Positions 9,172 to 30,501 of a DNA stretch of 64,000 nt are shown here, piece by piece. Where the stretch lies: assembly GCA_030646035.1 (NCBI GenBank), contig JAUSMY010000046.1:73072-137071 (forward strand), read 5' to 3'. The DNA comes from Thermodesulfovibrionia bacterium. GTDB lineage: Bacteria > Nitrospirota > Thermodesulfovibrionia > UBA6902. Both the position numbers and the translations under genes were made by a program. Under the pieces are notes generated by a model. It saw only the letters and a list, made by a program, of their open reading frames with translations. It did not search any database and was not told the DNA's origin. Each line of letters begins with the position of its first letter. Position 1 is the first letter of the stretch.

Positions 9172-9309
9172 TTTCAATTTATTGTCATTAGTGTGTGAAA
9201 ACACCCATGTGGGGGCTATTTAAGACTTTTTCTGATATGCTTGTTGAGTTTAACTTGTTGTTTTTATTAGGTTATCCTTTTTGGTATCATTTTTGCTTTA
9301 TTATATTAC

Positions 9310-11682
9310 ATGAAGACCACATATAAACATAAAATACAAAACATTTTTACAATTTCTGCACTAATTTTATTGTCAACCCTTTCTTTTGCCGCTAAAACCC
9401 AAGCAGCGGCCATGCCTGATTATGCCAGGCTGCAGTCGATAAGCAACAAGCTTCAGGCACCTTCAGGTGTAGCTCTTGATGCTTATGATAATTTATATGT
9501 GACTGATTCTAAAAGCAATAAGCTTGTAATCTACAGCAGTGACGGAACATATATTGACACTATTCATGGTTTTAATGAACCCATTAGTGTCGCAGTTGGG
9601 AATGGCATTATTTATGTAGGAGATAGCGGCAGCGGAACAGTGAAGGTTTATGATAAAAACCGTAACTATATAAATAGTATCGGCAATTTCTTAAAGCCTT
9701 CATCTATAGCAGTTGATGCTGCGGGAAAGATTTATGTTGTGGATTCTGAAAGAGATATGGTTTATGTATACAATTCTGATGGCACTTCCAGTTTTTCATT
9801 CGGCGGCTCCGGCAATACTAACGGACTCTTCCACTATCCTACTGCAATGGCTATTAATGCATCAGCCGGTGAGATTATAGTAACTGACCTTCAGGTAATA
9901 TCATCAGCAGCAGGTACCTTTGAAGGTGCAAGGATTCAGGTTTTTGACATGAGTGGGAACCACAAGCGCAGTTTTGGCGATTACGGTATTGGAGCAAGTA
10001 AGCTGTTCAGGCCTTCCGGTGTGGCTGTTGATGAAGAAGGAAGGGTATATGTGACAGATGTATTCCAGAATGTAGTTCAGGTATATAATAATGATGGTAC
10101 TCATCTTGGCGCGCTTTATGACTCTGCTAATCCTATGAGGACGCCTGTTGATATAACGATCAGCAATAGCAATAAAATTTATGTTGCATCATTTTATACT
10201 TACGGTGTAGAGGTTTATAGAATCACAGATGACAAGCCTGCTTACGCAACTGTTGTTCCTCAGTCTCATGATTTTGGTAGTGCATATGTTGGCAGTTCTT
10301 CAACTACCCAGAAATTCACGGTATATAATATAGGTAATGGAGATTTGCAATTAGGGTCTGTTGTGCTTGCCGGTGCAGATGCGGGCGATTTTATTATTCA
10401 GATTGATTCATGTAATGGAAATAATCTTGTTCCTGCAGGTACATGCGATGTAATAGTTGCCATGTCGCCTGTTTCAGTTGCATCGAAGAGTGCTGAAATT
10501 AATATATTCTCCAATGACCCTTCAAGCCCACTTGTGGTTACTCTGAGCGGCAACGGTGTTGCGGCGCCAAATCAGTCTCCTGTAGCTGATGCAGGCGGGC
10601 CTTATAATGTTAATGAGGGAACAACTGCACTGCTTGATGCCTCAGGTTCATCTGATGCTGATGGTTCAATAGGCACATATTCATGGGACCTTGACAACGA
10701 CGGAGTTTATGAAACGATTGGCAACCCTATGGGATTTGATGCAGCTTCGATTGATGGTCCCCTTGGGCCGTTTACAATAGGTCTTAAGGTTACTGATAAT
10801 CTCGGTGCTACAGGCACAGACAGTACCACTATAATGATAAACAATGTTCCTCCTGCGGCAGATGCCGGAGGGCCTTATTCCGGCTTAACAGGTACTGCTG
10901 TTGTTCTTACAGGTTCATCTGCAGATTCCGGCAGTGCTGATGTTCTTGGTTATGCATGGGATCTTAATGGCGATGGTTCATATGAAACATCCGGCAAGGA
11001 TGTGCAGATAACATATAACACTGTCGGTAATTATACAGTTGGGCTTAGGGTTACAGATGATGACGGCGGTGTTGGTATAGATACAGCACATATTACTGTT
11101 ACCGCTGCAGTAGTTGTAGTACCCGGGATTGATATTTCCCTTAATGCCGGATGGAATCTTGTGGGATGGGTAAGCGATATCGGTTATTATAAGGCTGGCT
11201 CGCAGCCTCTGGTCACAGAATATGCTTCAGGTGCAACAATGAATTCCGTGGCAAATATTGATGCTGCAATGACTGACATAGGGTTGTCTTCAGCAGATTA
11301 TCTGCTAATTATCGGGCCTGAAGGAAAGGTTCATATACCGGGATCTCCATTTAATACGCTTAAAAAGCTGCTTCCTGACAGGGCTTACTGGATATATGCA
11401 AATCAGGATATATTAATAACTCTTCCTGGTAATAAGATTTCAAAGGCTGCTACGAGCACACTTGCAGCAGGCTGGGTGCAGGTTGGTTACAGGGGTGATG
11501 AGGGATTGAATCCTGCAGATGCGTTAAGATGTATTGAAGGTAATTACAATATTGTTGTAAGCGGGAAGGGCAAGCTGTTTATTAAGGGATTCCCATATAA
11601 CAATTTAACTTCACTGCACCAGGGGCAGGGTTACTTCATCTATATGACGACAACAGGGACGTTGACGTATGATTGTCCTTAA
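9310..11682 (+). CDS. secreted NHL-repeat beta-propeller protein with PKD domains
   Basis: A signal peptide is present. Six NHL-type blades carry motifs such as LYVTDSKSNKLVIYSSDGT and IYVVDSERDMVYVYNSDGT. Two PKD-like modules follow (VADAGGPYNVNEGTTALLDASGSSDADGSIGTYSWDLDNDGVYE and AADAGGPYSGLTGTAVVLTGSS...). Confidence 0.8.
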   Translation: MKTTYKHKIQNIFTISALILLSTLSFAAKTQAAAMPDYARLQSISNKLQAPSGVALDAYDNLYVTDSKSNKLVIYSSDGTYIDTIHGFNEPISVAVGNGIIYVGDSGSGTVKVYDKNRNYINSIGNFLKPSSIAVDAAGKIYVVDSERDMVYVYNSDGTSSFSFGGSGNTNGLFHYPTAMAINASAGEIIVTDLQVISSAAGTFEGARIQVFDMSGNHKRSFGDYGIGASKLFRPSGVAVDEEGRVYVTDVFQNVVQVYNNDGTHLGALYDSANPMRTPVDITISNSNKIYVASFYTYGVEVYRITDDKPAYATVVPQSHDFGSAYVGSSSTTQKFTVYNIGNGDLQLGSVVLAGADAGDFIIQIDSCNGNNLVPAGTCDVIVAMSPVSVASKSAEINIFSNDPSSPLVVTLSGNGVAAPNQSPVADAGGPYNVNEGTTALLDASGSSDADGSIGTYSWDLDNDGVYETIGNPMGFDAASIDGPLGPFTIGLKVTDNLGATGTDSTTIMINNVPPAADAGGPYSGLTGTAVVLTGSSADSGSADVLGYAWDLNGDGSYETSGKDVQITYNTVGNYTVGLRVTDDDGGVGIDTAHITVTAAVVVVPGIDISLNAGWNLVGWVSDIGYYKAGSQPLVTEYASGATMNSVANIDAAMTDIGLSSADYLLIIGPEGKVHIPGSPFNTLKKLLPDRAYWIYANQDILITLPGNKISKAATSTLAAGWVQVGYRGDEGLNPADALRCIEGNYNIVVSGKGKLFIKGFPYNNLTSLHQGQGYFIYMTTTGTLTYDCP

Positions 11683-11706
11683 AATAAATTGCTAGGAGAT
11701 AATATT

Positions 11707-12171
11707 ATGAAAAAGAGCATGAAAATATCATTATTAATAGCATCAGTATTGCTCTTTATGGCCAGCCCTATTTATGCCGGCAGTTTTGGCAGTCCTGTCT
11801 CTTCTGTTATAAGCATGCATATTGCCGGTTCATTAACAATAAATGGGAATGCGGCAGCTTTTGGTGATGAAGTTGCCATCTTAGACAACAGTGGAAAGGT
11901 TCTGGGGTTGTTTGTTGTGGATGATGAAGGCGCATACGGTGATATGAATATCTCAGGCGATTATTCAGCAAGCTCTGATGATGAAGGTGCCCAAGAAGGT
12001 GAAATTCTTTATATCAGCGTATGGCAGGCATCTACAGATACTCTTTACTCTGGAAGTGGTGTGAGTATCACAGCGCCATCAGTCGGAGATACGATTTACG
12101 CTCCCTATTCTGAATCTGTACTTCATTTTGAGGGAGGCAGTTTTAACCTCCTTAATATTCAAGCCAGATAA
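11707..12171 (+). CDS. small secreted acidic protein of unknown function
   Basis: An aggag RBS lies at about 11692 with ATG at 11707 (MKKSMKISLLIASVLLFMASPIYA signal peptide). The ORF-track start at 11689 would include the RBS. Confidence 0.5.
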   Translation: MKKSMKISLLIASVLLFMASPIYAGSFGSPVSSVISMHIAGSLTINGNAAAFGDEVAILDNSGKVLGLFVVDDEGAYGDMNISGDYSASSDDEGAQEGEILYISVWQASTDTLYSGSGVSITAPSVGDTIYAPYSESVLHFEGGSFNLLNIQAR

Positions 12172-12196
12172 TCTCAGGTAATATGAGGATATAACT

Positions 12197-15100
12197 ATGA
12201 TAAAAAACATCAAAAAAAGGGCAATACTATTACTTGTAATTTGTTTGGCATTAATATCATCTTTTGCATATTCTCTTGACGCTCCGCACTCACCTGCAAA
12301 CCTGCAGGATTGTGCGACTTGTCATGATTTCTCCAGTTCTAATCCTTATCTTATGACTGACTGGACTGGTGGATATACGATGCAAGATGATGATGACACC
12401 CCATTAAATCACCTATGCAGAAGCTGTCATTACGGAGGCGGATCCGCCCCTGCGCATGATACGCATTCCTATCTCGGAGTTGGATATTCATCATCTACCG
12501 CAAGCCCCTATGGAGGCTGGCAGGTTAGATGCTCCACCTGTCATAACCCTCATTACCAAGATCAGGCCAAGGCATACATTAAGACAGGCGATACATACTG
12601 GAAGGTCAAATTGATTGTAGGGACAGTTATTTCATCTGCCACTTCTTCAACCATTCAGGCATCGGTTAATCCTGCTTGGGCTACTAATGCATATGTTGGT
12701 ATGCATGTTATACCTGATGTCAATACAAAGTACCCTGTTTCATATAAAATTACAGCCAATACATCAGATACTTTAACAGTAAAAGGGCCGCTTAACCCTG
12801 CTACAGGATTACCCGGTAAAACATTTGCAATATTTCGTGGAAAGCTTATCAGGAACCAGATAAAGCTTAATGATATTGTCAATCAAGAGGTTTCACAAAC
12901 AGGCAGAATGACTGTCAGGTTCTTTAATGCTTCCGGCACGAAATCATTTGCAGACGGAGATACAACATATGATGGTATATGTGAGGTTTGTCATAATCAG
13001 ACTTCACACTTCAGAAATTCCGGTTCTGCTCCGGATCAAAATCATACTCTTTTAGGCTCAGGCATCCCCGGTCAAAATTGTACCGGTGCTTGTCATGTGT
13101 CAAGTGACGGGTTCCAGCCGTCAGGATGCAGTTCCTGTCATGGCTATCCAGTAGATACAGGCTCATTGATCTCATTGGATAAAACAGGAGCATCTGCTAC
13201 AAGCGATTCTCAGGGCCCTGGCGCGCATATTGCGCATAACACCAAATTTGAATGTACCAACTGTCACACCGGAGGCATGATTGGCGGTGCTTCTCAGGGT
13301 GATGACCTCATTAACATAGGTTTTTATCTTAATAGTAATCTGGGCGGTAATTATGACGGTACTGCATCAAGAACAGTATTTAATTATGTCGGTTCAGCGT
13401 CTACAACGGTTACAACATTAGGGACTTTGCAGTGTTCAAATTTATATTGTCATAGTACGGGGCAGTCTTCAAACGGGGCTTCTCCTATTCCTTCATCTTA
13501 TGCTGCACCGGCATGGAATGGAACCGCAGTCTGCGGCACCTGTCATGCGAAAGCTGAAGGAGAAGGTCTTACCAGCGGATCTCACGGAGCGCATCTTGGA
13601 ACAGCAGGAGTCAACGGCTGTGCTGACTGTCATACCGGAGCGGCAAACGACGCATCTACATATAATTCAGCTAATCACGTAAATAGATTAATAGATGTTG
13701 CAAACACATATGGTGCCGCAGGCGCTCCGGGTAACGGATACGGCACATGTTCAGCAGCAAGCTGTCATTCCAATGTATATACCTCAGGCACAATAGCGAC
13801 ACCGGTATGGGGCAGCACAGACAACGGATGTTCGGCATGTCATACCACAGTGATAGATGCAACAGGCCCGGCAACAGGCGGCCATGCGTTACACGCCGAG
13901 ACAACCTGTACGCTCTGCCATAATGCAGGCACAACTTCAGCAACCATGCCGTCAACTGAACATGCGGATGGAGACATAGACACAAACAATGTCGGTTATT
14001 CAGACAATAAGGCCAAAGGCAGCATATACACAACATGTTCAACAGCAAGCTGCCATGCAAATGTCTACGCATCAGGAACAATACCAACACCGATATGGGG
14101 CAGCACAGGCAACGGATGTTCAGCATGTCATACACCAGCGATAGACCCAACAGGCCCGGCAACAGGCAGCCACAGCGCACACATGTCTGCAACTGTAAAG
14201 GTTAACGGCAGCAGCATCGTCTGCGTCAACTGCCATAACGCAGGCACGACCTCAGCAACCAAGCCGTCAACAGAGCATGCTGACGGAGACATAGACACAT
14301 CAGCCAGCTTAGGCTACACAGACAACAAGGCTAAGGGCAGCGCACCCACAACCTGTTCAACGGCATACTGTCATACAAACGGCCAGGATGCTTCTGGCAC
14401 AACAATTACGCAGAAGGTAACGGCAACATGGGGAACACCAGCCACATGTACAACATGCCATGACTTCAACGGTTCAATGCAGCCCACAACGGCAAATCAT
14501 ACAACACATATAACACGCACAGGAGGCACATGTGTGCAGTGTCATGATGTTTATGGAGATAACACAACAGAGCCTGATCTTAATTCACCTCTTCATATTA
14601 ATAATGTAATCAACGTTGCGCAGGGCGGAGTTGTAACCTTCGGTTATGATGGCAACGGTTCCGGCAATCATGCACCCGGATATGGTTATGGATCATGTTC
14701 AACGGTCTCCTGCCACGGTGGCGGCGCAACAAGAACATGGGGACAGATGGGTGACGCATGTGAAGACTGTCACTCTAACCTTGGCGGGCCTTCAGGCAGC
14801 GACAGGGGTCATGGTTTCCATGTTCAGACAGCATATATTGGAGCAATTACTGCAAGTTCATACGGTGACTATACCGGCAATGACTGGTACGCATATAGCA
14901 ATACAGGCGGAACTCCTGATATGGGTTGCGGATTCTGTCATCCGCAGTCAGACGCTACACATAATAACGGAGTTGTTAACCTGAACTTTGATCCATCAGA
15001 CACAGGGGCTTCTGCCACATTGAAGTTTAAGAATGATGCTTCCTCAACCTATGCTCAAACAGAGCGTACAAGCGTAACCTGCTCGAGCGTGTACTGTCAT

Positions 15101-15772
15101 AGTGACGGTTACGCAAATCCTGGTTATGGATATCAGACATCTCCTGAATGGTTTCTAGGTAACTTTGTCGGTGATAAGTGTGATGACTGTCACGGCAACT
15201 CACCGGCCAGTAATTCACACGACAGCCATGTTGTTGGCATACATTATGAAGGTGTTTACACAGGTTCAACAGGTCTCGCATCTGCCGGATCAGGTAATAC
15301 AAACGCTCACGGAAGTTCATCATACTCAACAACAATAAGCTGCAGCACATGTCACAACAGCACCGTGACACAGACTGCAAATGCCGGAAACAATACTTGT
15401 ACAATATGCCACACTGATACTAATTCACCGGCAACCGGCAACGAGTTCGCTGTTATATACGCTTCCGCCACAACCCATATTAACGGGACGCCGGATATAG
15501 CGTTCAATGCGATCAATGTTAAGTCAAAGGCTCAGCTTAGAGATAACACGCAAATTATTACTGATCTTGATGAGACATGGGTCAGGTCTGGCGCTTATAA
15601 GGTGCCTGGGTCATATGACCTTGCGAATAACGCTCTTAATACTGCCATAATGTTTGACAGGGTAAGCAGCACATGTTCAACAGTCGCCTGTCATAATGGC
15701 AACTCGGTTAAATGGGGCGATACAGGCATAAGCTGTAATAACTGTCACACAGATATCCCAAACTTAAATTAG
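12197..15772 (+). CDS. giant secreted multiheme cytochrome c (about 28 heme motifs), doubled CX4CH...CXXCH (Geobacter-type paired motif) family
   Basis: An N-terminal signal or anchor is present. I count 28 CXXCH-class motifs by eye, including CX3CH (CTGACH) and recurrent CX4CH ... CXXCH pairs, for example CSTASCH followed about 27 aa later by CSACH. Low complexity and a rich Gly/Thr/Ser content suggest an extracellular beta-rich protein. Confidence 0.9.
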   Translation: MIKNIKKRAILLLVICLALISSFAYSLDAPHSPANLQDCATCHDFSSSNPYLMTDWTGGYTMQDDDDTPLNHLCRSCHYGGGSAPAHDTHSYLGVGYSSSTASPYGGWQVRCSTCHNPHYQDQAKAYIKTGDTYWKVKLIVGTVISSATSSTIQASVNPAWATNAYVGMHVIPDVNTKYPVSYKITANTSDTLTVKGPLNPATGLPGKTFAIFRGKLIRNQIKLNDIVNQEVSQTGRMTVRFFNASGTKSFADGDTTYDGICEVCHNQTSHFRNSGSAPDQNHTLLGSGIPGQNCTGACHVSSDGFQPSGCSSCHGYPVDTGSLISLDKTGASATSDSQGPGAHIAHNTKFECTNCHTGGMIGGASQGDDLINIGFYLNSNLGGNYDGTASRTVFNYVGSASTTVTTLGTLQCSNLYCHSTGQSSNGASPIPSSYAAPAWNGTAVCGTCHAKAEGEGLTSGSHGAHLGTAGVNGCADCHTGAANDASTYNSANHVNRLIDVANTYGAAGAPGNGYGTCSAASCHSNVYTSGTIATPVWGSTDNGCSACHTTVIDATGPATGGHALHAETTCTLCHNAGTTSATMPSTEHADGDIDTNNVGYSDNKAKGSIYTTCSTASCHANVYASGTIPTPIWGSTGNGCSACHTPAIDPTGPATGSHSAHMSATVKVNGSSIVCVNCHNAGTTSATKPSTEHADGDIDTSASLGYTDNKAKGSAPTTCSTAYCHTNGQDASGTTITQKVTATWGTPATCTTCHDFNGSMQPTTANHTTHITRTGGTCVQCHDVYGDNTTEPDLNSPLHINNVINVAQGGVVTFGYDGNGSGNHAPGYGYGSCSTVSCHGGGATRTWGQMGDACEDCHSNLGGPSGSDRGHGFHVQTAYIGAITASSYGDYTGNDWYAYSNTGGTPDMGCGFCHPQSDATHNNGVVNLNFDPSDTGASATLKFKNDASSTYAQTERTSVTCSSVYCHSDGYANPGYGYQTSPEWFLGNFVGDKCDDCHGNSPASNSHDSHVVGIHYEGVYTGSTGLASAGSGNTNAHGSSSYSTTISCSTCHNSTVTQTANAGNNTCTICHTDTNSPATGNEFAVIYASATTHINGTPDIAFNAINVKSKAQLRDNTQIITDLDETWVRSGAYKVPGSYDLANNALNTAIMFDRVSSTCSTVACHNGNSVKWGDTGISCNNCHTDIPNLN

Positions 15773-15782
15773 GTGATCTGAG

Positions 15783-20219: not shown

Positions 20220-20282
20220 GTTTATGACGAATATGCGAATGATAATAATTGAAAATAGAATACAAAGTGAGGAGAGATCAGT

Positions 20283-23200: not shown

Positions 23201-25934
23201 CTGCGGAAGCTGTCATGGTAATCCTCCGGGAGCAGGTACTCCCGCGGGTTCGCTTGCCAGCAGTCCAAATACAACAGGTTCTGTGACTGTTGGAGCGCAT
23301 AATACTCATTACACCACACTTGGATATGGATGTTATACTTGCCATACCGGCTCTGTAATGCCTCATGAGAGTACTGCTTTGCCGGGACAGGGAGATATTA
23401 ATATCGGATTTAGCGCTTTTGGCTCAACATCTGGAACATACAGCGGCCAGACAGGTGTAAGCTATAATGATGTTGCAGGTACCGGAGGCCTTAACTGCTC
23501 AGCCTTATATTGTCACGGAGCAACACTTGACGGCACTTCAACCACTGCTCAGTGGAATGGGACGGTCGCATGCGGTAATTGCCATAAGGCAACAGCAGCT
23601 AATACGCCTACACTTGGCAACCATGCACGTCATGCGGGCAGCACTCAGGTGAATATAGCCTGTTCAGATTGTCACGGAGCTAACGGCGCAGGCGGTGGCG
23701 GACATGTTGGCGGAACAGTACAATGGGGTTTGAATACTTCAAGCGCGCTATTTGGAACGAGCGCACAATACAACTCAGCAGCATCCGGTACTAAGAACAA
23801 CTTGGCTCCGAGTTCATCGTATCAGACATGTACGACACTTTATTGCCACAGTAATGCACAGGGCGCAAGCGGGGTCGGAGTTCCTTCATCATATAAGTCG
23901 CCATTATGGGGCGCAGGAACGCTTGGCTGTGCAGGCTGTCATGTTGATATGACAAGCGCATCTGGCACCGCAAGCCATATTAAACATGCAAATTCATATG
24001 GTATGACATGTTCGAATTGCCACACCGGCTATACAGCAAGCACAACAAACGCTTCTGTACATGCAAACAACACTATAAATGTCACATTAGCTTCTGGCAC
24101 CTATTCCGGAGGCACCACACCGGGTGACCATGCTTCGGGCGGCGGATATGGAAGCTGTTCTACCAATAACTGTCACAGCGACGGCAAGGCAACACCATCT
24201 ACTTATACGAATCCCGCATGGGGCGGCACAGCAGCCTGCGGCACATGTCATGGAGTCGCAGCGGCTACACCGCCTGCGTCTACGCCGCATACCAAGCATG
24301 TCGGCACAGCGGCGAATTACAAGTACGCCTGCTACAAGTGTCATACTAATGTAGCTGTAACAGCGGATTCAACAACATCAGCTACTCTTAACGGCACCTA
24401 TACAACAACACATGTGAACGGCACAAGGAATGTTGACTTTGACGCTTCTTCAGTAGGCGGCTCATGGGCAAGCACTCAGTGCTCCAATACCTATTGTCAC
24501 AGCGCTGGCACAACATTCACAGTTGCTTCAGCAACACATTCGGCAATATCATGGAGCGGTACCAAGGATTGCGCTGGTTGTCATACAGGCGGCATATCAA
24601 CAGGACCGAGCTATACAAACAATTCACCTAAGACCAATACGCACGCACAGCATGTGACCACTTCTGGCTATGTCTGCGTTGACTGCCATAGCGGCACGGT
24701 CACCGGCTCTAACACTATCTCTGATACTTCAAAGCATCTTAACAAGGCTTATGATGTTTCAGGCGCAAGTGTGACTACATATTCATATGTATCTGACGGC
24801 GGCACATGTACGACAAAATGCCATGGGACAAAGACTGTGAAGTGGGGTACACAGACAACTGACGCTACATGTGTGAAGTGTCATGGTGTTGTCGGCACGA
24901 CATCAGTCCAGTATGCTTCGATGACAGCTACAGCAGCGCCCGGCTTTAACGGCACAGGGCTTGACACTAATGGCGAAGCCTCTGATACTGACAGTCAGGT
25001 AGGAGCGCATAATTCGCATCTTAACTCAGTAAGCAATTACAGTAGTGATATAGCCTGTAATGAGTGCCATGCGGTTCCTGCATCAGTCAATGCATCAGGG
25101 CATATAGACTCAACTCTTCCTGCTGAATTGACCTTTGGCACACTTGCCTCAACTAACGTGGGTTCAACCACAGCTCCGAACTATGCAAGTCCGAGCTGTA
25201 CAAATACATATTGCCATTATGGTAAATCATGGGGCGGCTATAGTCCTACTACTGCCAATGCAGCAGTCTCATGGATAAATACAGCTTATCTCAGCGGCAC
25301 GCCAAGCCTTGCCGGTGACTGTAATAAGTGTCATGCGTCACCTCCATCGAGCCATGCCGGCGGTATGGTGATAGCTGATTGTATCGGCTGTCATACACAT
25401 TTGAATAATGACGGAACCTTCCTGGATCCTTCTCTGCATATCAATGGTTTAGTTGACGCTGCCGGCGGCGGATGCGGCGGATGCCATGATTATGATAATG
25501 CCGGATCAAACTATGCCGGCGGTGTCTGGACAGGCGGCACCTGGGGCAAACTTCCCCATAGGGACGACCCGACAAATGAAGGATGGGGCGCGCACGCAGA
25601 GCATATAAATCATATTAAGACAAGGCTTGCTATCACATATGTTCTTTCAACATCAAACCAGACCTTTGGTACAGGCGAGCCTGCCAATGTTTGCGGAACC
25701 TGTCATACTAACACGGGCGGCAACCATTCAACAGGCGGCAGCACAGTACGTTCTATTAACTTTGGCGACGGAACATATAAATACGGCGGAGCTTCAGGCA
25801 CCAGCATCGCCTTGATGAGCTCAACCAACCCGACTTATAACGGTGTGAGCGCGACGTCTTCATTGGTGAATCCGAAGACCTGCTCGAACATTAGTTGTCA
25901 TTACAGCACAACCCCGGTATGGGAAGCATTTTAG
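20283..25934 (+). CDS. giant multiheme cytochrome c (about 26 heme motifs) with an ~800-aa non-heme N-terminal beta-rich region
   Basis: A gaggag RBS is present. The N-terminal anchor is MNWMAKISLVLVFTMFFSIQGW. Roughly 800 aa of Thr/Ser/Gly-rich Ig- or fibronectin-like sequence precede the first heme motif. I then count 26 motifs including CX3CH (CTTKCH) and CX4CH. Confidence 0.9.
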   Translation: MGRIISNKVSSMNWMAKISLVLVFTMFFSIQGWYSPKIVQAAISKPSNWASQYAAVAYPAGTINAAYTVAAGTNRLLVVAISSTQTAVGTAQTVSSITYGGQPLTLAAGDGSSTVTWNHTYLYYLNEAGIQAASGTALNVTISGGTSYYNWVYAAVYAGVDQTGTPYTDAKNFNSVAASTAVGPFSPTLTINVNDQAIEIVNLARSTANVTARTITTWATGWTTAGVAPASIVTSGPTATMYIRDRNLLTTANDGSQHTESNAAAFDSMTAMSIQVAPVDSTPPNVSTVNVDPTYTNGPTSYTTSAPVITAILTDAESTVTGCEYTTNGSTWVTGVLTGSSSPWTCTGSPTGLTGSLTLNIRGTSSAPGYGTGVSQARTVDVAVPITTDSLVSFNWVSTEDTVTLYPVDGGSGVTAATGIYGCFGTGCTPVVLGGNTMTSACGAGNECWLDVRYYSKDNLNWTESTVTSAFQVLVDRAAPAGLAASSPADEALDLPTSTTVDSTTATDNGSGSIEYYFEVDTDPGFSAPQTGGWQAGTSYAPTLASGPTYFWRVKARDVIGNATAWTTPRSFSTLASCTRNDPTLTLETDTGAVQGFITTNGGTKDYILTVINNDNGGCGDTTFDFTVTDTDGGNNFDAPILSSLIATLAPGAQTIRTVTVTATAGKTTGQSLTYVNYDGIDPNHLNVVNSNNVTTFINVVDCNANVPYLIIGPDSGNVAIGGDIQYTVTVQNTDTGSGCSAVIYNINIDSETNSANFILPSTLSLPSKTLSPGQKGSVTITVTSKIGAVLDEINITTIGVTATGHTSPADATATTTVGNRILHNSINTGSTKWSSSGGWGVPGGRYGEFDCTTCHTTSDATNIKKISSSITTPNPASGTLPGDGQSIVFTTISAVSGTSGVLGDDSDATRTSSNRICEVCHTYDVSGVNGVVVHAYDQVTYVSESVTNNHQNANATDCIACHKHKVGFMPPDCGSCHGNPPGAGTPAGSLASSPNTTGSVTVGAHNTHYTTLGYGCYTCHTGSVMPHESTALPGQGDINIGFSAFGSTSGTYSGQTGVSYNDVAGTGGLNCSALYCHGATLDGTSTTAQWNGTVACGNCHKATAANTPTLGNHARHAGSTQVNIACSDCHGANGAGGGGHVGGTVQWGLNTSSALFGTSAQYNSAASGTKNNLAPSSSYQTCTTLYCHSNAQGASGVGVPSSYKSPLWGAGTLGCAGCHVDMTSASGTASHIKHANSYGMTCSNCHTGYTASTTNASVHANNTINVTLASGTYSGGTTPGDHASGGGYGSCSTNNCHSDGKATPSTYTNPAWGGTAACGTCHGVAAATPPASTPHTKHVGTAANYKYACYKCHTNVAVTADSTTSATLNGTYTTTHVNGTRNVDFDASSVGGSWASTQCSNTYCHSAGTTFTVASATHSAISWSGTKDCAGCHTGGISTGPSYTNNSPKTNTHAQHVTTSGYVCVDCHSGTVTGSNTISDTSKHLNKAYDVSGASVTTYSYVSDGGTCTTKCHGTKTVKWGTQTTDATCVKCHGVVGTTSVQYASMTATAAPGFNGTGLDTNGEASDTDSQVGAHNSHLNSVSNYSSDIACNECHAVPASVNASGHIDSTLPAELTFGTLASTNVGSTTAPNYASPSCTNTYCHYGKSWGGYSPTTANAAVSWINTAYLSGTPSLAGDCNKCHASPPSSHAGGMVIADCIGCHTHLNNDGTFLDPSLHINGLVDAAGGGCGGCHDYDNAGSNYAGGVWTGGTWGKLPHRDDPTNEGWGAHAEHINHIKTRLAITYVLSTSNQTFGTGEPANVCGTCHTNTGGNHSTGGSTVRSINFGDGTYKYGGASGTSIALMSSTNPTYNGVSATSSLVNPKTCSNISCHYSTTPVWEAF

Positions 25935-25949
25935 AGTGAGGGGTAGAAT

Positions 25950-28900
25950 ATGAAAATTATAAAAGTGAGGGAGATCAACATGAGAGGGACAAAAGATAAA
26001 AAGACCGGAGGCATGAACTTGAGGAAGCCCAAGATCAGTCTCGTGCTGATCTTCACTATAATATTAAGTATCTTTATGCTTCAGGGCTGGATCGGCTTGA
26101 AATCTGCAGATGCGATGCCGCTGGTAAAGAAGGGCACTATTGTAAAGAACACGGCCACCGGCGCGCAGGCTGTCACCGGAGTGGGGTTCCAGCCCAAGGC
26201 TGTGGTGTTCTGGTGGACGAGGCAGAACACATTTAACGCGAACAACGCCGGCATTTCCACAGGTTACGGCTATGCCGCTGCCTTGCCGACAATCACTCAG
26301 GGATCAGTTGCCGCAGCGGCAAGGGATAATCTGGCGACAACTGACAACAATTTCATGGAGTCAATCACATACTCTATCGTTATACTTAATCCCGGCGCTA
26401 CGGGCACGCCGATGGTTGCCAGGGCCTCGGTCACTGCATTCGGAGCTGACGGCTTCACCCTTAACTGGCAAACCAACGAGGCGCAGGCCAACCAGATACA
26501 CTATATGGCTATCGGAGGCGCGGATATAACGGATGCCAGGGTTGGCACCTTTGCCGGACCTGCTGTAGCAGGCTCAGCAGCGGTCACAGGGGTTGGCTTT
26601 CAACCGGACGCGGTGTTGTTTGTTGCGGGCAATAGGACCGGAGTTACATGGGACACAATTGTCGCTGAGGGCGCGCAGACGATAGGCTTCATGTCGTCTG
26701 CCACATCACAAGCGTCAATAGGCTGGTCTGCCAGAGATGCTCAGACCGCGCTATCAAACGCTCATGCATGGTCCGGGGCGCAGGCCATTACAGGGCTCAG
26801 GCGTAACGCCCTTGACCAACAGGCAGCCTTCACCTCCATGGACGCTGACGGATTCACCTTAAACTTCACACAAACAGGCGGTGCTTCTAATTATATTTAT
26901 TTGGCCCTCAAGGGCGGACTTTTTAAAATGGGCACGTTCAATAAAAACACAGCGGCAGGCGCGCAGAGCGTCACCGGCTTAGGATTCCAGCCCAGCGGCC
27001 TGATGCTTTTAAGCGAGAGCGACAACGTGGCAGCGGCCACGGCCCGCGCCAGTGCCAACCCGGCCTCAAACCTCTCCATCGGCGCCACAGACGGCACAAC
27101 ATCCGGTTCGACATGGATGCACTATCGGTCAATCGCCACAACAGACACCAACACATTTACATATAACACGAATATTATGAAGATGGGCATAAATACTAAC
27201 GCCACTGTAACTAACTACGGCGAGGCCACGTTTACGTCCTTCAACACAGACGGATTTACGATAAACTGGACCACCTCAGACGCCACGGCCCGTAACTTAA
27301 TCTATTGGGCCATCGGCGGGGTACTAGGTGATTCAGTGAATGTCGCAGATGGTACTGACCCAGCGAATGCTAACGCAGGCCGCGGCAGTACAAATAATAT
27401 AGCTGACAGCTTTACGATGGTCGCAGTCAATACCCTGGATGGCCTGGCAGATGTAACCGGTGTTACTTCAAGCTTTACAAACAGTGCAAACATCTCGGGC
27501 GTCAGGCTATATAAAGATAACGGGGTTGCAGGGACATATGAGCCCGGGACTGATACGCTGCTTTCGACCGGAACACCCGGTGCATCAGTAAGCTTTACGG
27601 GCTTTACTGAAAACCTTACAACAACAGCGGCAAACTACCTGATTTTAGTTGATATCGCAGGCGGCGCTACTTTGGCGCAGACAATTGATACCTCTGTAAC
27701 CGCTGTTACGGTTACGTCTCCTGATGTGCAGGGCACTATATCAGACGCATCCAATCCAACAAGGCTTACCATTATTGATCTGCCGCATGAAGATGCAGGT
27801 ACGGCATCAAATACAGCAATAGCTGCAAGTCCTCAGCTTGAAGGCGGAACAGGCATTCTGATGCAGCGTTTTCAGGTTTCGAGCGCAACCAGCAGCGCAG
27901 GCGCGCAGGACAATCAGCTTGAGCTTAACTCTCTCGGCATTGACGACCTCGGCACTGCAACCGGAGCCAGGACCGCAAAGGCGTATATTGATACAACAAG
28001 CTCTGCAACGCTTCCCGGAACAGCGGTGCTCATCGGGACTCTCTCTTCATGGACAGGCGCTCCCACAACGATAACCCTGAATCAGGGAACCGCAGGTGAC
28101 AGAACAGTAACTAACGCAACTCCGAGGTACATATATATTGTCTATGATCTGCCGGCAGGCGCGACCCAGACCGTTCAGTCAAGTATCACATCTGTAGGCG
28201 CTGTCAGCCCTGATGCCGGACAGACAGGCCTTACATTGAACTCAAATGCGATCACACTAAGCGCTGACCCGTCAACTATTACATCATGCGCCGGCTGTCA
28301 TGGCTATGGAGCCACACTTACAGATGGCACAGCGCGTAATGTTCCGGATGGCAAGTTCCCCGGTTCTCATAATAAACATGTAAATACTTATGGCAAGGCA
28401 TGTTCAGTATGCCATGCTGTGCCAGCAACTGAAACAGGCGCGAATTATACACACCGTAACAACACCATTGAGATGTCTGGCTCTATTAACGGAACATCCG
28501 GGGCTGTATATGTTAAAGGCACAAGCTGGACACAGACAACCATACCTGCTGCTTATACGGGATGTACCAACACTTATTGCCATAGCAGCGGAGTAGGTGT
28601 TCTCTCCGGCACAATTCCGTCCAACACATCGATAACATGGGGAACAACCGCTACATGCGGCAGTTGTCATGGCACGGCCTTAGATGATGGCAGGCCTAAT
28701 TACACAAACAATAGCCCTAAACGTAATACGCACGGTGATGGCGCAAGCTATGGCGTTACACACAAAGCTACTGCATGTACAACGTGCCATACAGGTGTAT
28801 CAGGGACTGCAGGTTCATATACAGTTGATCCTGCAACACATAACAACGGGGTATATAACCTGTCTGGGACATTTGGATATACGCAGGCTACAGGCACATG

Positions 28901-30245
28901 CTCAACACCCGGCTGCCACGGTTCATCAACCTGGGGCACCTCACTCGGCTGCGTTGACTGCCATGCCTCGGCACAGGGAACTCGTAGTATTATCACCGGC
29001 GCTTCTGGTGAATTCGGTTTGGCATGGGGACATAAGAAATCCGCACGTGGAACTGTGACCGATGCTGATTGTATCGTCTGTCATCTTGAAGGTGCGTATA
29101 CTTCCGGCGTAGGTTCAGCAGTCGCGAAGACAGCCTATCATTCCGGAGCTCCTAATGGCAACATAGACCTGCGTGATCCTGACGGGGCTGGTGAGACTGC
29201 GATCACAAATAATAGCGGCGGTGCATTTACCTTCACTAAGTACTCGATATCATATGCTGCCGGCTCCCGTACGACGACCTTGGGTAACACAATTCCTGAA
29301 GTTATCACGGTTAAGTTCTGTATGAAATGTCATGACAGTAATGGCGCTACCAATACAACCGCACGATCGAACAACGGCGGTACCGGTACTGCTACACAGC
29401 CGTTTGGCGGCATAAGCACCGGATATTCCGTAATTAACGGCGCTGCAGCCGTTAATGGGCTCATCGATGTAAGCACCCAGTTTGCCGCAGCCAACTCTTC
29501 ACGGCATCCTGTAGGCGCTCCGAACTCGAGGAGGTATCCATATTCAACACGGCTCGCTTCTCCATATAATAATATTGGAACAACAAGGGATGCTAATACA
29601 CAAGTTGGCAATACCGCAACGCCACGTGTCGCGGCAAACAGCGTTGTTCTCGTCTGTGATGATTGCCATACCGTAACTACTGCCGCAGGCTCGTTGCCGA
29701 GCTTAACGAATCGTACTATTACGGCACACGGTACTGCTCAAACAGATAACGTGCGTGGTACATTTATGGTTGCGACTCCTGTGTTGTGTCTGTCATGTCA
29801 TGGTGGGACTACTACTCCAAATACAACAACTGCACAGATCGATACCACCAACGGAGATCACAATCCCGGCTCAGCCTATGCGGTCGGCACGACCAGAGTC
29901 AATAGTTTTATAAGTAATTGCGGATACTGCCACTTTAGCGCTTTAACAACACCGGTCAGACCTATCAAGGCTCAGGATATTCACGGCTTCAATGGGATGC
30001 AGACAACAGGCGCAGCATGGGCATGGGGTACTATATCTGGTATGCGGCCGGTTGCATTTATGCGTAACGTAGCTAATTTTGCAACTGCATCACCTCGTCC
30101 TTATAGTGCGACACTTGCAGGCCCGGGCCAGTTTACCCTTGCCGGAGGTCAATCCTCTTGTGCCGGAACAGGCGATCTTACTAATGGCTCTTGTTCTGGT
30201 CAGACAGGTAAGCATACCCCATACTCACCGGGTGGTTCATACTGA
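25950..30245 (+). CDS. giant cytochrome c (about 12 heme motifs) with an N-terminal region of 3-4 internal ~110-aa repeats
   Basis: A gagggg RBS is present. The anchor KISLVLIFTIILSIFMLQGW is homologous to that of ORF 20283. Internal repeats are built around VTG(V/L)GFQP and GFT(L/I)N(W/F)(Q/T)T. The C-terminal half carries 12 heme motifs including CX4CH (CTNTYCH, CSTPGCH). Confidence 0.85.
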   Translation: MKIIKVREINMRGTKDKKTGGMNLRKPKISLVLIFTIILSIFMLQGWIGLKSADAMPLVKKGTIVKNTATGAQAVTGVGFQPKAVVFWWTRQNTFNANNAGISTGYGYAAALPTITQGSVAAAARDNLATTDNNFMESITYSIVILNPGATGTPMVARASVTAFGADGFTLNWQTNEAQANQIHYMAIGGADITDARVGTFAGPAVAGSAAVTGVGFQPDAVLFVAGNRTGVTWDTIVAEGAQTIGFMSSATSQASIGWSARDAQTALSNAHAWSGAQAITGLRRNALDQQAAFTSMDADGFTLNFTQTGGASNYIYLALKGGLFKMGTFNKNTAAGAQSVTGLGFQPSGLMLLSESDNVAAATARASANPASNLSIGATDGTTSGSTWMHYRSIATTDTNTFTYNTNIMKMGINTNATVTNYGEATFTSFNTDGFTINWTTSDATARNLIYWAIGGVLGDSVNVADGTDPANANAGRGSTNNIADSFTMVAVNTLDGLADVTGVTSSFTNSANISGVRLYKDNGVAGTYEPGTDTLLSTGTPGASVSFTGFTENLTTTAANYLILVDIAGGATLAQTIDTSVTAVTVTSPDVQGTISDASNPTRLTIIDLPHEDAGTASNTAIAASPQLEGGTGILMQRFQVSSATSSAGAQDNQLELNSLGIDDLGTATGARTAKAYIDTTSSATLPGTAVLIGTLSSWTGAPTTITLNQGTAGDRTVTNATPRYIYIVYDLPAGATQTVQSSITSVGAVSPDAGQTGLTLNSNAITLSADPSTITSCAGCHGYGATLTDGTARNVPDGKFPGSHNKHVNTYGKACSVCHAVPATETGANYTHRNNTIEMSGSINGTSGAVYVKGTSWTQTTIPAAYTGCTNTYCHSSGVGVLSGTIPSNTSITWGTTATCGSCHGTALDDGRPNYTNNSPKRNTHGDGASYGVTHKATACTTCHTGVSGTAGSYTVDPATHNNGVYNLSGTFGYTQATGTCSTPGCHGSSTWGTSLGCVDCHASAQGTRSIITGASGEFGLAWGHKKSARGTVTDADCIVCHLEGAYTSGVGSAVAKTAYHSGAPNGNIDLRDPDGAGETAITNNSGGAFTFTKYSISYAAGSRTTTLGNTIPEVITVKFCMKCHDSNGATNTTARSNNGGTGTATQPFGGISTGYSVINGAAAVNGLIDVSTQFAAANSSRHPVGAPNSRRYPYSTRLASPYNNIGTTRDANTQVGNTATPRVAANSVVLVCDDCHTVTTAAGSLPSLTNRTITAHGTAQTDNVRGTFMVATPVLCLSCHGGTTTPNTTTAQIDTTNGDHNPGSAYAVGTTRVNSFISNCGYCHFSALTTPVRPIKAQDIHGFNGMQTTGAAWAWGTISGMRPVAFMRNVANFATASPRPYSATLAGPGQFTLAGGQSSCAGTGDLTNGSCSGQTGKHTPYSPGGSY

Positions 30246-30275
30246 TCATATTACTGATGTAGTTTTGTAAGTTGT

Positions 30276-30310
30276 AAAAGCCCCACCTCAATGCAGGTGG
30301 GGCTTTTTTT
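30276..30310 (+). terminator. Rho-independent terminator closing the cytochrome operon
   Basis: The hairpin AAAGCCCCACCT-caatgc-AGGTGGGGCTTTTTTT has a GC-rich 9-10-bp stem followed by T7. Confidence 0.8.
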
Positions 30311-30350
30311 CTGGTAATGAAACGTATAATAGAAGAAGTTGTTTTGTCGT

Positions 30351-30451
30351 CATACCCGTGCTTAAGACACCTACTGTTGGCGAAGGCGGGTATCCAGAAG
30401 TCTTTGTTTTTCAAAGAAACTGGATTCCCGATAAAGGAACTCGGGAATGAC
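30351..30451. repeat. gene-less miniature copy of the palindromic-end element that flanks the GIY-YIG gene
   Basis: It consists of gtcatacccg...cgggtatccag, a 22-bp palindromic spacer, and ctggattcccg...cgggaatgac. The architecture and end motifs (gtcatWcc.../...ggaatgac) match the two ends of the 31899-32256 element. Confidence 0.5.
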
Positions 30452-30501
30452 AAACTAAGACATTTGCAAGAGTCTCAAATAATATTTCGAGAGGTTATTG
30501 T

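Follow-up and report, generated by a model that had tools for sequence, protein, structure and literature searches.

ORF calling in the 64-kb window (the whole stretch of DNA analysed here) yielded six co-oriented genes, all on the + strand, at 9310–30245. This ~21 kb run encodes a secreted β-propeller protein, a small secreted protein and four putative multihaem cytochromes (c1, c2, c3 and c4), which have a combined length of 5,983 amino acids and chains of 120–190 kDa. The host is a groundwater-type Nitrospirota bacterium; its MAG is labelled 'Thermodesulfovibrionia bacterium' at NCBI, where the cluster proteins are MDO8282422–28. The features of the locus and its surroundings are as follows.

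8500–9171, + strand: TPR lipoprotein, 223 aa, lipobox LLYGC, Pfam TPR_6/TPR_2
9310–11682, + strand: NHL/PKD propeller protein, 790 aa
11707–12171, + strand: small secreted protein, 154 aa from ATG 11707 (the ORF at 11689–12171, 160 aa, opens at TTG 11689)
12197–15772, + strand: cytochrome 1 (c1), 1191 aa, 28 haem motifs, MDO8282424
15783–20219, + strand: cytochrome 2 (c2), 1478 aa, 31 haem motifs (1465 aa from the PGAP start at 15822)
20283–25934, + strand: cytochrome 3 (c3), 1883 aa, 26 haem motifs
25950–30245, + strand: cytochrome 4 (c4), 1431 aa, 12 haem motifs (1421 aa from ATG 25980)
30276–30310, + strand: intrinsic terminator closing the operon, with a 13-bp stem (seven G-C pairs), a 6-nt loop and a T-run (stem to T-run, 30276–30307)
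30502–31875, + strand: PD40/TolB-like β-propeller lipoprotein, 457 aa, lipobox VSGC, Pfam PD40
32260–33342, + strand: ResB-like (CcsB-type) cytochrome c biogenesis protein, short (360 aa), Pfam ResB 6.9e-12, no NCBIfam match
37513–38337, + strand: CcsA-type haem lyase/exporter subunit (System II), Pfam Cytochrom_C_asm 3e-33
43560–51733, mixed strands: T2SS/T4P-like (MSHA-like) machinery, with one pseudopilin on the + strand and the rest on the − strand

The likely true start of the small secreted protein is ATG 11707. For c4 the likely start is ATG 25980, which fits the family leader and has a GAGGGAG ribosome-binding site; both versions of this start are on record. The intergenic gaps, in order from the TPR–NHL gap onwards, are 138, 6, 25, 10, 63 and 15 nt. 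No terminator was predicted in the 138-nt gap, and the TPR lipoprotein gene may be co-transcribed with the NHL gene. The site at 30276 was the top-ranked terminator-like site within 27500–33000, and the operon-internal sites, all of them weak, did not exceed shuffle expectation (12 versus 16.0 expected). A preliminary description had given six plus-strand genes at 9310–30245, short gaps next to a 138-nt one, and a strong terminator at 30276 with none inside; ORF calling, the measured gaps and the terminator scan agree with it throughout. Its view of a single operon behind a secreted NHL/PKD propeller is supported by the gaps, the single terminator and synteny, and domain searches recovered the NHL/PKD, TPR lipoprotein, ResB-like, CcsA and T2SS/T4P-like genes as described there.

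Haem-binding motifs were counted by pattern. The numbers of CXXCH, CX3CH and CX4CH motifs were 20, 1 and 7 in c1, 23, 1 and 7 in c2, 19, 1 and 6 in c3, and 10, 0 and 2 in c4, giving CX2–4CH totals of 28, 31, 26 and 12, respectively, and 97 overall, identical to an earlier count by eye. Composition-preserving shuffles gave 0.03–0.40 motifs per protein and never more than 4. Nearly every cysteine lies inside a motif (56/57 in c1, 62/64 in c2, 52/62 in c3 and 24/26 in c4). The motifs follow a repeating 4-2-2 order, i.e. CX4CH-CXXCH-CXXCH trihaem units, and the CX4CH motifs number seven, seven, six and two in c1–c4, respectively. Histidines outside the motifs outnumber the haems in each protein (31 versus 28 in c1, 38 versus 31 in c2, 36 versus 26 in c3 and 17 versus 12 in c4). 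When c2 was compared with six orthologs (63–80% identity), the motif residues were invariant at 93 of 93 positions and the non-motif histidines at 35 of 38, against a background invariance of 44% overall; because both sets are so well kept, one distal histidine per haem is indicated. The motif scan of c1–c4 found no CXXCK and no other catalytic-type or open-site motif. The haems are thus predicted to be of the electron-transfer (bis-His) rather than the catalytic type. Haem would be loaded at these motifs, and the sequences support c1–c4 as genuine c-type multihaem cytochromes of the electron-wire type.

All four proteins scored above the curated cut-offs of three family models. For TIGR01904 (cut-off 27) the scores were 136.2, 161.3, 119.9 and 34.5 bits for c1, c2, c3 and c4, over seven, eight, six and two stretches, respectively; for PF09698 (cut-off 21.7) they were 54.3, 43.4, 43.7 and 28.2 bits, and for PF14522 (Cytochrome_C7; cut-off 24.8) 72.6, 63.0, 87.8 and 45.5 bits. 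As judged from these profiles, c1–c4 belong to the CxxxxCH/CxxCH family (TIGR01904/PF09698), and PGAP names all four 'CxxxxCH/CxxCH domain-containing protein' (TIGR01904). The TIGR01904, NHL and PKD searches proposed in the preliminary description all returned matches. A TIGR01904-type cluster is a known, already annotated kind that is biochemically uncharacterised. The MtrC/MtrF domain II/IV model PF22113 (cut-off 30) matched one segment each of c1 (44.1 bits) and c4 (38.6 bits), neither of which has a lipobox. TIGR04257 (nanowire_3heme) reached 17.4 bits, under its cut-off of 40, and TIGR03508 (DmsE family) matched c2 only, at 17.9 bits versus a cut-off of 192.2, so that no MtrA/DmsE-type decahaem protein was recognized among the four. 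A PDB sequence search found no chain matching c1, c3 or c4 at E ≤ 0.01.

The four paralogs share only 26–36% mutual amino-acid identity. All operon proteins, c1–c4 included, have Sec-type signal peptides, and no canonical lipobox was found in any of the cytochromes. In c1 the signal peptide is followed by the N-terminal MtrC/MtrF II/IV-like segment and then by repeated 4-2-2 trihaem units, whereas c2 has an FN3-like domain (FN3/Pur_ac_phosph_N-like match) behind its signal peptide. Haem-free N-terminal regions of ~770–830 aa are present in c3 and c4. That of c3 consists of an extended leader, which is conserved, an orphan ~240-aa N-terminal domain (20403–21137) and an Ig/FN3-like stalk to ~22770, beyond which the haem motifs lie at residues 852–1872; in c4, ~770 haem-free residues including three ~140-aa repeats precede 12 haem motifs at residues 780–1328, which include the MtrC/MtrF II/IV-like segment. 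A confident model of the c3 N-terminal region is all-β, with ~7 β-sandwich domains resembling those of adhesins and S-layer proteins, while the AlphaFold model of c1 had a pLDDT of 34. Haem-free proteins whose annotation places them in Chloroflexota or Actinomycetota also have the first domain of c3, and the N-terminal Ig/FN3-like modules of c3 and c4 are 50–65% identical to haem-free surface proteins of these phyla. Since such modules are common to surface proteins, exposure of c3 and c4 at the surface is plausible. The composition is rich in Thr, Ser, Gly and Asn and poor in Lys, Arg and Glu; the hematite-binding S/T-P-S/T motif is not enriched.

The TPR lipoprotein gave weak BamD/YbgF-like NCBIfam matches. 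The NHL protein consists of a secreted six-bladed β-propeller (residues ~45–305), Ig-like and PKD domains (residues ~313–600) and a C-terminal part of ~190 aa; the Pfam matches were NHL (1.9e-26), PKD_4 (2.5e-24), a K319L-like PKD and a HYDIN-like Ig domain, with an NCBIfam choice-of-anchor D domain, and the PDB matches were the NHL propellers of TRIM71, Pizza and PknD and the PKD domain of ColH. Its signal peptide is kept in orthologs of 790–818 aa and is lost with the PGAP start (756 aa). The small secreted protein (PGAP hypothetical protein MDO8282423) is acidic and Ser/Gly-rich, with no match in Pfam, NCBIfam or the PDB. The PD40 lipoprotein matched TmcD_fam at 3e-20 (72.5 bits, far under the cut-off of 440) and TolB at 2.6e-9, with TolB as its PDB match; its gene lies beyond the terminator, yet is kept 3′ of c4 in relatives (L001 and L008, 7e-77).

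At least five further Nitrospirota MAGs contain orthologous clusters, and the synteny check suggested in the preliminary description showed gene order to be conserved. The orders tkt-TPR-NHL-small-c1 and c1-c2-c3-c4-PD40 recur across relatives (GCA_003358065.1, GCA_016213935.1, GCA_016207885.1, GCA_016215115.1 and several metagenome contigs). Orthologs of the TPR lipoprotein occupy the same position, directly 5′ of the NHL gene, in loci L038, L039 and L040; in L039 and L040 the linkage of NHL to c1 is also conserved, with the small secreted protein kept between them (6e-51 and 1e-59, respectively). The c1 orthologs in L039 have 28 motifs. Those of c4 are shorter than c4 itself: L001 has one of 900 aa and 12 motifs, and L003 one of 802 aa and 14 motifs. 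A secreted NHL propeller thus sits beside multihaem cytochromes with a conserved linkage to c1. β-Propeller proteins (NHL, FG-GAP, SBBP) also flank giant cytochromes of the TIGR01904 family in the independent loci L009, L010, L011, L022 and L025, and the NHL–cytochrome pairing itself recurs in L009, L022 and L025.

The ResB-like and CcsA genes both lie within 8 kb of the operon, 4 kb apart with opposite-strand genes between them; CcsA scored 174.7 bits against TIGR03144 (cut-off 187.6). Both an export signal and a haem-attachment system (ResB-like/CcsA, System II) therefore appear to be available for c1–c4. A 13-kb stretch with unrelated genes separates the operon from the secretion cluster. 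The − strand of this cluster encodes a secretin, PilO-like, PilM/N-like and GspF-like proteins and a second pseudopilin, as well as a GspE-like ATPase whose c-di-GMP-binding N-terminus is of the MshE type. Scores were below the equivalog cut-offs (GspE 516/630, GspF 287/424, GspD 191/351 and GspG 62/89 bits), and the secretin scored best against MshL; the cluster looks as MSHA-pilus-like as T2SS and is tied to the cytochromes by proximity only. No β-barrel porin, MtrA-like periplasmic cytochrome or quinol oxidase/inner-membrane quinol dehydrogenase was found in the 64-kb window, and no porin-like family in the cluster genes or adjacent ORFs. The sole barrel-like match in the window was a DUF1302 protein (53331–54638) inside an MMPL/LolA-like cluster. 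Sulfur-handling genes (YeeE-like, DsrE-like, TauE and FCSD-like) lie at 52–61 kb of the window.

The closest likeness by family is to the giant cytochromes of Geobacter and Geotalea (GSU2884/OmcA, OmcG, OmcH, the 53-haem protein of G. daltonii and the Geobacter sp. OR-1 array), which share TIGR01904/PF09698 above the curated cut-offs and match c2 at 25–30% identity across ~60% of its length. Both groups have CX4CH/CXXCH repeats, tandem paralog arrays and flanking propeller/Ig proteins, and in both each protein is predicted to form one long chain resembling a nanowire (PMC11492766); GSU2884/OmcA, OmcG and OmcH are predicted to be extracellular (PMC11492766). The present cluster differs in its occurrence in Nitrospirota, in fewer haems per chain and per array, in the ~800-aa haem-free N-terminal regions of c3 and c4, and in a conserved front module (TPR, NHL and small protein) that occupies a constant position on the chromosome, beside tkt. 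GSU2884 is part of a porin–cytochrome operon (PMC11492766), whereas no porin was found here. The preliminary description implied an exceptional size, which did not survive comparison: four-adjacent-gene arrays of the same family in Geobacter and other Nitrospirota carry 134–175 haem motifs versus 97 here (44+35+38+17 in Geobacter sp. OR-1, locus L012; 39+56+35+45 in an uncultured Geobacter; 39+53+29+13 in a groundwater Nitrospirae MAG), and single chains in Desulfuromonadia are reported to have up to 87 (PMC11492766). The cluster is a real, conserved Nitrospirota member of a known cytochrome-array type.

Other systems are alike in part. The GSU1996-type dodecahaem 'nanowire' (c7-type trihaem domains) is likewise one polypeptide of repeated trihaem modules, a likeness seen in the Cytochrome_C7 scores and the trihaem periodicity of c1–c4; here, however, the first motif of the unit is CX4CH, TIGR04257 is under its cut-off, there is no PDB sequence match and the chains are 2–3 times longer. 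Porin–cytochrome conduits (MtrCAB, PccABC/Ext and the Gallionellaceae PCC3) presumably do the same job, moving electrons across the envelope via multihaem proteins, and PCC3 combines periplasmic chains of 21–27 haems with extracellular chains of 10–35 haems (PMC9900912). The II/IV-like segments of c1 and c4 recall MtrC, but neither the cluster nor the window has the porin gene or MtrA/DmsE-type decahaem protein of such conduits. Polymerized filaments (OmcS, OmcE, OmcZ and the archaeal tetrahaem filaments) have the same presumed output, a long continuous extracellular haem chain; they are homopolymers of 4–8-haem subunits, whereas here length would come from covalent repetition within chains, and the PDB sequence search with c1, c3 and c4 matched none of the solved filament subunits. 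In domain and placement, the propeller gene resembles secreted six-bladed NHL proteins directly beside extracytoplasmic multihaem cytochromes: GSU2505, which adjoins omcS/omcT, encoding outer-surface cytochromes of Geobacter (PMC9070056), DFE_0451/DFE_0463 beside outer-surface cytochromes in D. ferrophilus (PMC9769857), and UetH/UetI beside the cytochromes of the Uet system (PMC9900912). Unlike these, the propeller here is fused to Ig/PKD domains (790 aa).

We consider it probable that the operon encodes a module for long-range electron transfer (EET-type), part of which is exposed at the surface, with β-propeller proteins as helpers. Each cytochrome would be exported via Sec, receive its haem through the System II (ResB/CcsA) machinery and take on an elongated shape, a chain of repeated trihaem units whose haems lie close together and are mostly bis-His and low-spin. 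Together the 97 haems could provide an electron path of tens of nanometres, at perhaps ~0.8–1 nm per haem as in solved multihaem wires. As almost pure haem wire, c1 and c2 could bridge the periplasm; c3 and c4 would most likely be displayed on or beyond the outer membrane because of their long Ig/FN3-type stalks and an N-terminal module common to surface proteins of single-membrane bacteria. The β-propeller proteins may act as assembly or anchoring partners, and the net function would be to let the cell exchange electrons over long distances with something outside it, such as a mineral, a syntrophic partner cell or humics. The electron conduit of the preliminary description stands in so far as it consists of Sec-secreted multihaem cytochromes of the wire type in a conserved arrangement. 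The idea of a self-contained EET locus does not, given the lack of a porin, an MtrA-like cytochrome and a quinol oxidase in 64 kb, the split ccs genes and the distant, ambiguous secretion cluster.

A purely periplasmic role, in which the chains are periplasm-spanning wires and/or electron-storage capacitors buffering respiration (e.g. of sulfur compounds), is unlikely. The lack of a porin and of lipoprotein anchors on the cytochromes would suit it, a chain of 26–31 haems might roughly equal the width of the periplasm, such spanning and capacitor roles have been discussed for 21–27-haem proteins (PMC11492766, PMC9900912), and the PD40 lipoprotein resembles TolB/TmcD-type periplasmic proteins. 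However, Ig-like stalk amounting to ~1,600 aa is difficult to account for within the periplasm, the stalk is adhesin- and S-layer-protein-like, it and the N-terminal domains of c3 and c4 are common to surface proteins of single-membrane bacteria, and an extracellular location is predicted for the Geobacter homologs (PMC11492766).

The same hardware could run in reverse and feed sulfate/sulfur reduction, the electrons coming from Fe(II) minerals, from a surface that acts like a cathode or from a syntrophic donor cell. Multihaem wires can conduct either way, NHL-containing Uet and PCC3-type clusters have been assigned to uptake in iron oxidizers and electroautotrophs (PMC9900912), and the sulfur-handling genes of the window would be compatible with this direction. 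The sequence sets no direction, however, and no Cyc2/MtoA-type iron-oxidation markers occur in the window. We give uptake a slim chance, and it is a variant of the long-range electron-transfer module rather than an alternative structure.

That c1–c4 are catalytic multihaem enzymes (e.g. sulfur, nitrogen or metal-oxyanion reductases) is very improbable. Thermodesulfovibrionia do have such enzymes, for example MccSep (PMC13510729), but c1–c4 lack CXXCK or another special ligand motif, the excess of conserved non-motif histidines over haems points to six-coordinate electron-transfer haems, no resemblance to NrfA, HAO, MccA or OTR structures emerged from the PDB sequence search with c1, c3 and c4, and the repeat architecture is modular and varies in length among relatives, unlike that of enzymes. 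An assembly artefact, with collapsed or chimeric repeats producing spurious giant ORFs, might be suspected for paralogous, internally repetitive genes from a MAG, and a misassembled repeat had been named in the preliminary description as grounds for rejection; it is effectively refuted, as the cluster DNA is free of tandem repeats and its longest direct repeat measures 147 nt (84% identity), the paralogs share only 26–36% identity, a 39-kb contig of an independent Logan assembly carries identical proteins and the orthologous gene order recurs in at least five other assemblies.

The ORF list gives seven co-oriented genes on the plus strand, from the TPR lipoprotein to the last of the four giant multihaem cytochromes, c1–c4.

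8500-9171, plus strand, TPR lipoprotein, 223 aa
9310-11682, plus strand, NHL/PKD protein, 790 aa
11689-12171, plus strand, small protein, 160 aa
12197-15772, plus strand, cytochrome c1, 1191 aa
15783-20219, plus strand, cytochrome c2, 1478 aa
20283-25934, plus strand, cytochrome c3, 1883 aa
25950-30245, plus strand, cytochrome c4, 1431 aa

The gaps between these genes, in order from the TPR lipoprotein, are 138, 6, 25, 10, 63 and 15 nt. Terminator-like sites within the operon are all weak and number 12, against 16.0 expected from shuffles, and a terminator with a 13-bp stem and a T-run lies 3' of the operon at 30276-30307. For the small protein the most likely start is the ATG at 11707 (the PGAP start, with an RBS); PGAP starts c2 at 15822. 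The start of c4 is more likely to be 25980 than 25950, as judged from a GAGGGAG RBS at the former and a leader there that matches that of homologues. The NHL/PKD start at 9310 should probably be retained, since the signal peptide encoded in 9310-9411 is conserved in orthologues of 790-818 aa and is removed by the PGAP start at Met35 (756 aa), which is likely to be a start-codon mis-call in the public record. No riboswitch, c-di-GMP (GEMM) or other, was found 5' of the operon at the Rfam gathering threshold (whole window) or at E ≤ 1 (8150-9400); GEMM riboswitches have been reported ahead of some Geobacter cytochrome genes. The G+C content rises from 0.38-0.43 in the flanks to 0.45-0.53 over the cytochrome genes (12000-30000), with its peak in c4, and may reflect either a composition rich in Gly, Ala, Thr, Cys and His or a foreign origin of some domains.

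The regular expression CX2-4CH matched 28, 31, 26 and 12 times in c1–c4, a total of 97 motifs in 5,983 aa, which reproduces exactly the counts of the preliminary description. Composition-preserving shuffles gave fewer than 0.4 motifs per protein (maximum 4). Nearly every cysteine lies inside a motif in c1 (56 of 57), c2 (62 of 64) and c4 (24 of 26), as do 52 of the 62 in c3, and a repeated 4-2-2 motif order defines trihaem units of ~100 aa each. When c2 was aligned with five orthologues (63-80% identity), 93 of 93 motif residues were invariant, compared with 44% of all positions, and so were 35 of its 38 non-motif histidines. Histidines outside the motifs exceed the haem count in the cytochromes, and the CXXCK motif is absent from c1–c4; this surplus of conserved histidines and the missing CXXCK point to six-coordinate haems that would serve electron transfer rather than form catalytic sites. 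The hematite-binding motif S/T-P-S/T is not enriched (0, 5, 7 and 0 occurrences in c1–c4, against 2.6-5.4 expected from shuffles).

All four cytochromes score above the NCBIfam cut-off for TIGR01904 (7, 8, 6 and 2 copies in c1–c4), all match PF09698 and Cytochrome_C7 in Pfam, and c1 and c4 contain a segment like MtrC/MtrF domain II/IV. PGAP names each a 'CxxxxCH/CxxCH domain-containing protein'. The cytochromes thus belong to a known, already annotated and biochemically uncharacterised family and represent no new kind of system; their earlier reading as multihaem electron-transfer proteins is supported. A sequence search of the PDB with c1, c3 and c4 returned no similar chain, so this family is without a solved structure. 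An AlphaFold2 model of full-length c1, built from a 20-sequence paralogue alignment, had a mean pLDDT of 34.2 and was set aside for both fold and length.

The first haem motif falls at residue 852 in c3 and 780 in c4, which sets both apart from c1 and c2. Residues 41-830 of c3, modelled from 31 aligned sequences (mean pLDDT 84.8), form a string of about seven β-sandwich domains. The first of these regions, an orphan domain of ~240 aa directly after the signal peptide (aa 41-285, window 20403-21137), has no match in Pfam, and its fold was assigned as far as 'β-sandwich'. At 50-65% identity the same domain directly follows the signal peptide both in other CxxxxCH/CxxCH cytochromes (e.g. in Geobacter sp. 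DSM 9736) and in Ig-rich proteins that have no haem motifs and carry a Chloroflexota or Actinomycetota annotation. It is rare: a full HMMER scan matched 316 representative clusters among 1.84 billion, and 42 of the best 150 of these 316 carry at least three haem motifs. An extended leader, MGK....K..GMSW.K.SL.L.FTL.....YQGW followed by AxA, is common to c3, c4 and many cytochrome homologues from Geobacter and Nitrospirota; the DNA encoding it in c3 (20283-20410) and c4 (25980-26110) is 82% identical (repeat D9). Most haem-free homologues with the same N-terminal domain have ordinary leaders. The extended leader may be a dedicated targeting signal. The N-terminal region of c4 contains three tandem repeats of ~140 aa (window 26115-27300, aa ~55-450) with the motifs GT..K.TA.GAQ.VTG.GFQP and DGFTLNW/DGFTINW, to which the Pfam and family search gave no assignment; c4 orthologues of 800-900 aa in relatives are without most of this region. 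In two other loci (L028 and L029, from Desulfuromonas and Deltaproteobacteria MAGs), a family cytochrome with 42-43 motifs lies upstream of three to four large proteins of 645-1702 aa with 0-1 haem motifs, and of one more with 7 motifs (2044 aa). The c3 stalk and the FN3-like domain of c2 have homologues in these downstream proteins, so that stalk modules exist also as separate genes beside giant cytochromes.

Orthologous clusters with 60-88% identity were found in GCA_016215115.1, GCA_003358065.1, GCA_016213935.1, GCA_016207885.1 and several metagenome contigs. Three other MAGs carry the front module tkt-TPR-NHL-small-c1 at the same chromosomal site, and the back module c1-c2-c3-c4 is conserved in other relatives, followed by the PD40 lipoprotein gene where contigs extend that far. 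The cytochromes downstream in the cluster differ in number and type between relatives: GCA_016215115.1 has an additional 283-aa gene and a c3 with 37 motifs, and in GCA_003358065.1 c1 is followed by an unrelated 1908-aa protein with 11 motifs. The ORFs and the terminator search confirm the six-gene plus-strand arrangement described earlier, with its short gaps, lack of an internal terminator and closing terminator, and the claim of a dedicated operon is borne out by the tight gaps, the single closing terminator and the conserved order in relatives. In the NHL/PKD protein, Ig and PKD domains come after a six-bladed propeller, and the small protein has no match in Pfam, NCBIfam or the PDB. The PD40 protein (30502-31875) is a lipoprotein with TolB-like repeats that is conserved 3' of c4 in relatives; its similarity to the TmcD family is weak (72.5 bits versus a cut-off of 440). 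In Desulfovibrio, TmcD is one of the subunits of the electron-transfer complex Tmc.

The preliminary description had also presented the locus as self-contained for extracellular electron transfer, with haem-ligation and export genes as neighbours. This was overstated, as no porin, MtrA-like cytochrome or quinol dehydrogenase was found within the 64-kb window. The neighbouring genes are present, but the ResB-like gene (at 32260) and ccsA (at 37513) are separated by opposite-strand genes, and all components of the pilus/T2SS-like cluster (43560-51733) fall below equivalog cut-offs. The secretin of this cluster matches MshL best and the N-terminal domain of its ATPase is of the c-di-GMP-binding MshE type, so the cluster may encode an MSHA-like pilus and not a T2SS.

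Sequence analysis thus describes four proteins with predicted Sec export and 97 conserved haem-attachment sites in trihaem repeats, encoded together with propeller and TPR helpers in a conserved operon, two of the cytochromes bearing adhesin-like stalks. We consider it probable that they constitute an envelope-spanning or extracellular electron wire module, in which case c3 and c4 would, with somewhat less assurance, be surface-exposed. Haems would be loaded by System II, and each cytochrome would form an extended haem chain. Solved multihaem wires measure ~0.8-1 nm per haem, from which the chains would be ~20-30 nm long for c1, c2 and c3 and ~10 nm for c4. The periplasm could be bridged by c1 and c2, and c3 and c4 would stand on or outside the outer membrane, carried by stalks that are related to surface proteins of bacteria with a single membrane. 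Assembly or anchoring would be aided by the NHL/PKD, TPR and PD40 proteins, and the unit's partner in electron exchange would be a mineral or another cell outside.

That the whole unit is a purely periplasmic bridge or capacitor is unlikely. Also doubtful is a more specific arrangement, in which c1–c4, the NHL/PKD protein and the small protein build a heteromeric structure of fixed length that is anchored to the cell, either a haem fibre or a redox-active surface coat, and that crosses the outer membrane without a dedicated porin. Its route may be, for example, through the nearby MSHA/T2SS-like secretin, and the orphan domain and leader of c3/c4 may serve as a module for export, anchoring or docking that had gone unrecognised, one that cytochromes share with haem-free adhesin-like proteins across phyla. 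If true, sulfate/sulfur-reducing Thermodesulfovibrionia would gain a path to direct interspecies electron transfer or to the respiration of minerals. Uptake of electrons instead of their export would run through identical hardware in the opposite direction; this variant, contained within the wire module reading, appears improbable. A catalytic multihaem enzyme is very improbable given the missing CXXCK and the conserved non-motif histidines that outnumber the haems.

An assembly artefact has next to no probability as the source of the cytochrome genes. Mis-assembly or a collapsed repeat, which the preliminary description had named as a danger to its reading, was ruled out by comparison of repeats and of an independent assembly, and the genes are real: tandem repeats are absent, direct DNA repeats reach at most 147 nt (at 84% identity), c1–c4 are old paralogues with 26-36% amino-acid identity, and identical protein sequences occur in a 39-kb contig of an independent Logan assembly. 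The proteins are on record as MDO8282422-MDO8282428, on a 142-kb contig of the NCBI MAG 'Thermodesulfovibrionia bacterium'.

To our knowledge, none of the giant single-chain multihaem cytochromes, which are widespread among bacteria of the subsurface, has been purified or solved; they may serve as periplasmic bridges, capacitors or extracellular wires. The present locus provides a clean and conserved case from outside the Desulfuromonadia, and its conserved features suggest experiments, namely the fixed helper module (TPR lipoprotein, NHL/PKD propeller and small protein) and the two stalk-fused cytochromes. On genomic grounds it lends further weight to the view that uncultured groundwater Thermodesulfovibrionia may pass electrons to or from minerals or other cells. 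Species-representative genomes scanned with the c2 alignment gave 29 loci, and a metagenome scan with c1 gave only two distant ones. Among the annotated loci, tandem arrays of the CxxxxCH/CxxCH family are common and often exceed the 97 motifs of the window.

Haem motifs in adjacent genes of larger arrays
L009, groundwater Nitrospirae MAG: NHL gene, then 4, 8, 39, 53, 29, 13
L012, Geobacter sp. OR-1: 44+35+38+17
L013, uncultured Geobacter: 39+56+35+45
L014, Geobacteraceae MAG: 44+35+57
L016, uncultured Geobacter: 43+35+57

With these five arrays for comparison, the cluster is not unusually large for its family and the exceptional size first ascribed to it was overstated. In L009, L010, L011, L022 and L025 the giant cytochromes have as neighbours β-propeller proteins (NHL, FG-GAP, SBBP) that often carry Ig domains. 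Most of what the cluster shows is already covered in the literature. In Desulfuromonadia, chains reach 87 haem motifs with prevalence peaks at 27, 35 and 56, and GSU2884/OmcA, OmcG and OmcH have been predicted to form long nanowire-like chains outside the cell (PMC11492766). NHL genes lie beside surface cytochromes in Geobacter (GSU2505; PMC9070056), in D. ferrophilus (PMC9769857) and in the Uet system, and in Gallionellaceae PCC3 a porin goes together with proteins of 21-27 and of 10-35 haems (PMC9900912). The sulfur reductase MccSep of Thermodesulfovibrionia is a pentahaem selenoenzyme of different architecture, and a link to it was rejected on that ground. The most original features are the conserved TPR-NHL-small-c1 module, the adhesin-like stalks on c3 and c4, and the rare orphan domain with its extended leader, the domain being shared with haem-free surface proteins.

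Several further elements were observed around the operon. Between its terminator and the PD40 gene, 30345-30455 contains nested inverted repeats (GTCATACCCG...CGGGTATCCAG...CTGGATTCCCGA...TCGGGAATGAC) with an MFE of -39.2 kcal/mol (z-score -2.8); this element is single-copy in the window, has no match in Rfam and may be REP/MITE-like. Upstream, at 5484-7389, ftsX directly precedes the split transketolase genes and ftsE is missing from this junction, as in the 88%-identical relative L038; the more distant L039 and L040 have a 220-aa ABC ATPase (FtsE-like) at this junction. An ORF of 104 aa with a GIY-YIG nuclease domain (31915-32229) lies between the PD40 and ResB-like genes. The ResB-like gene, ccsA and the pilus/T2SS cluster are set apart from one another by a block of genes at 33898-43468, among them three for B12-binding radical SAM proteins and one each for a LuxE-like acyl-protein synthetase, a PMT/ArnT-like glycosyltransferase and a GT2 glycosyltransferase. 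On the minus strand, 52114-60882 carries sulfur-handling genes (a YeeE/YedE-like transporter, a DsrE-like protein, a TauE/SafE exporter and an FCSD/SQR-like flavoprotein), among which lies a DUF1302/DUF1329(LolA-like)/MMPL trio.
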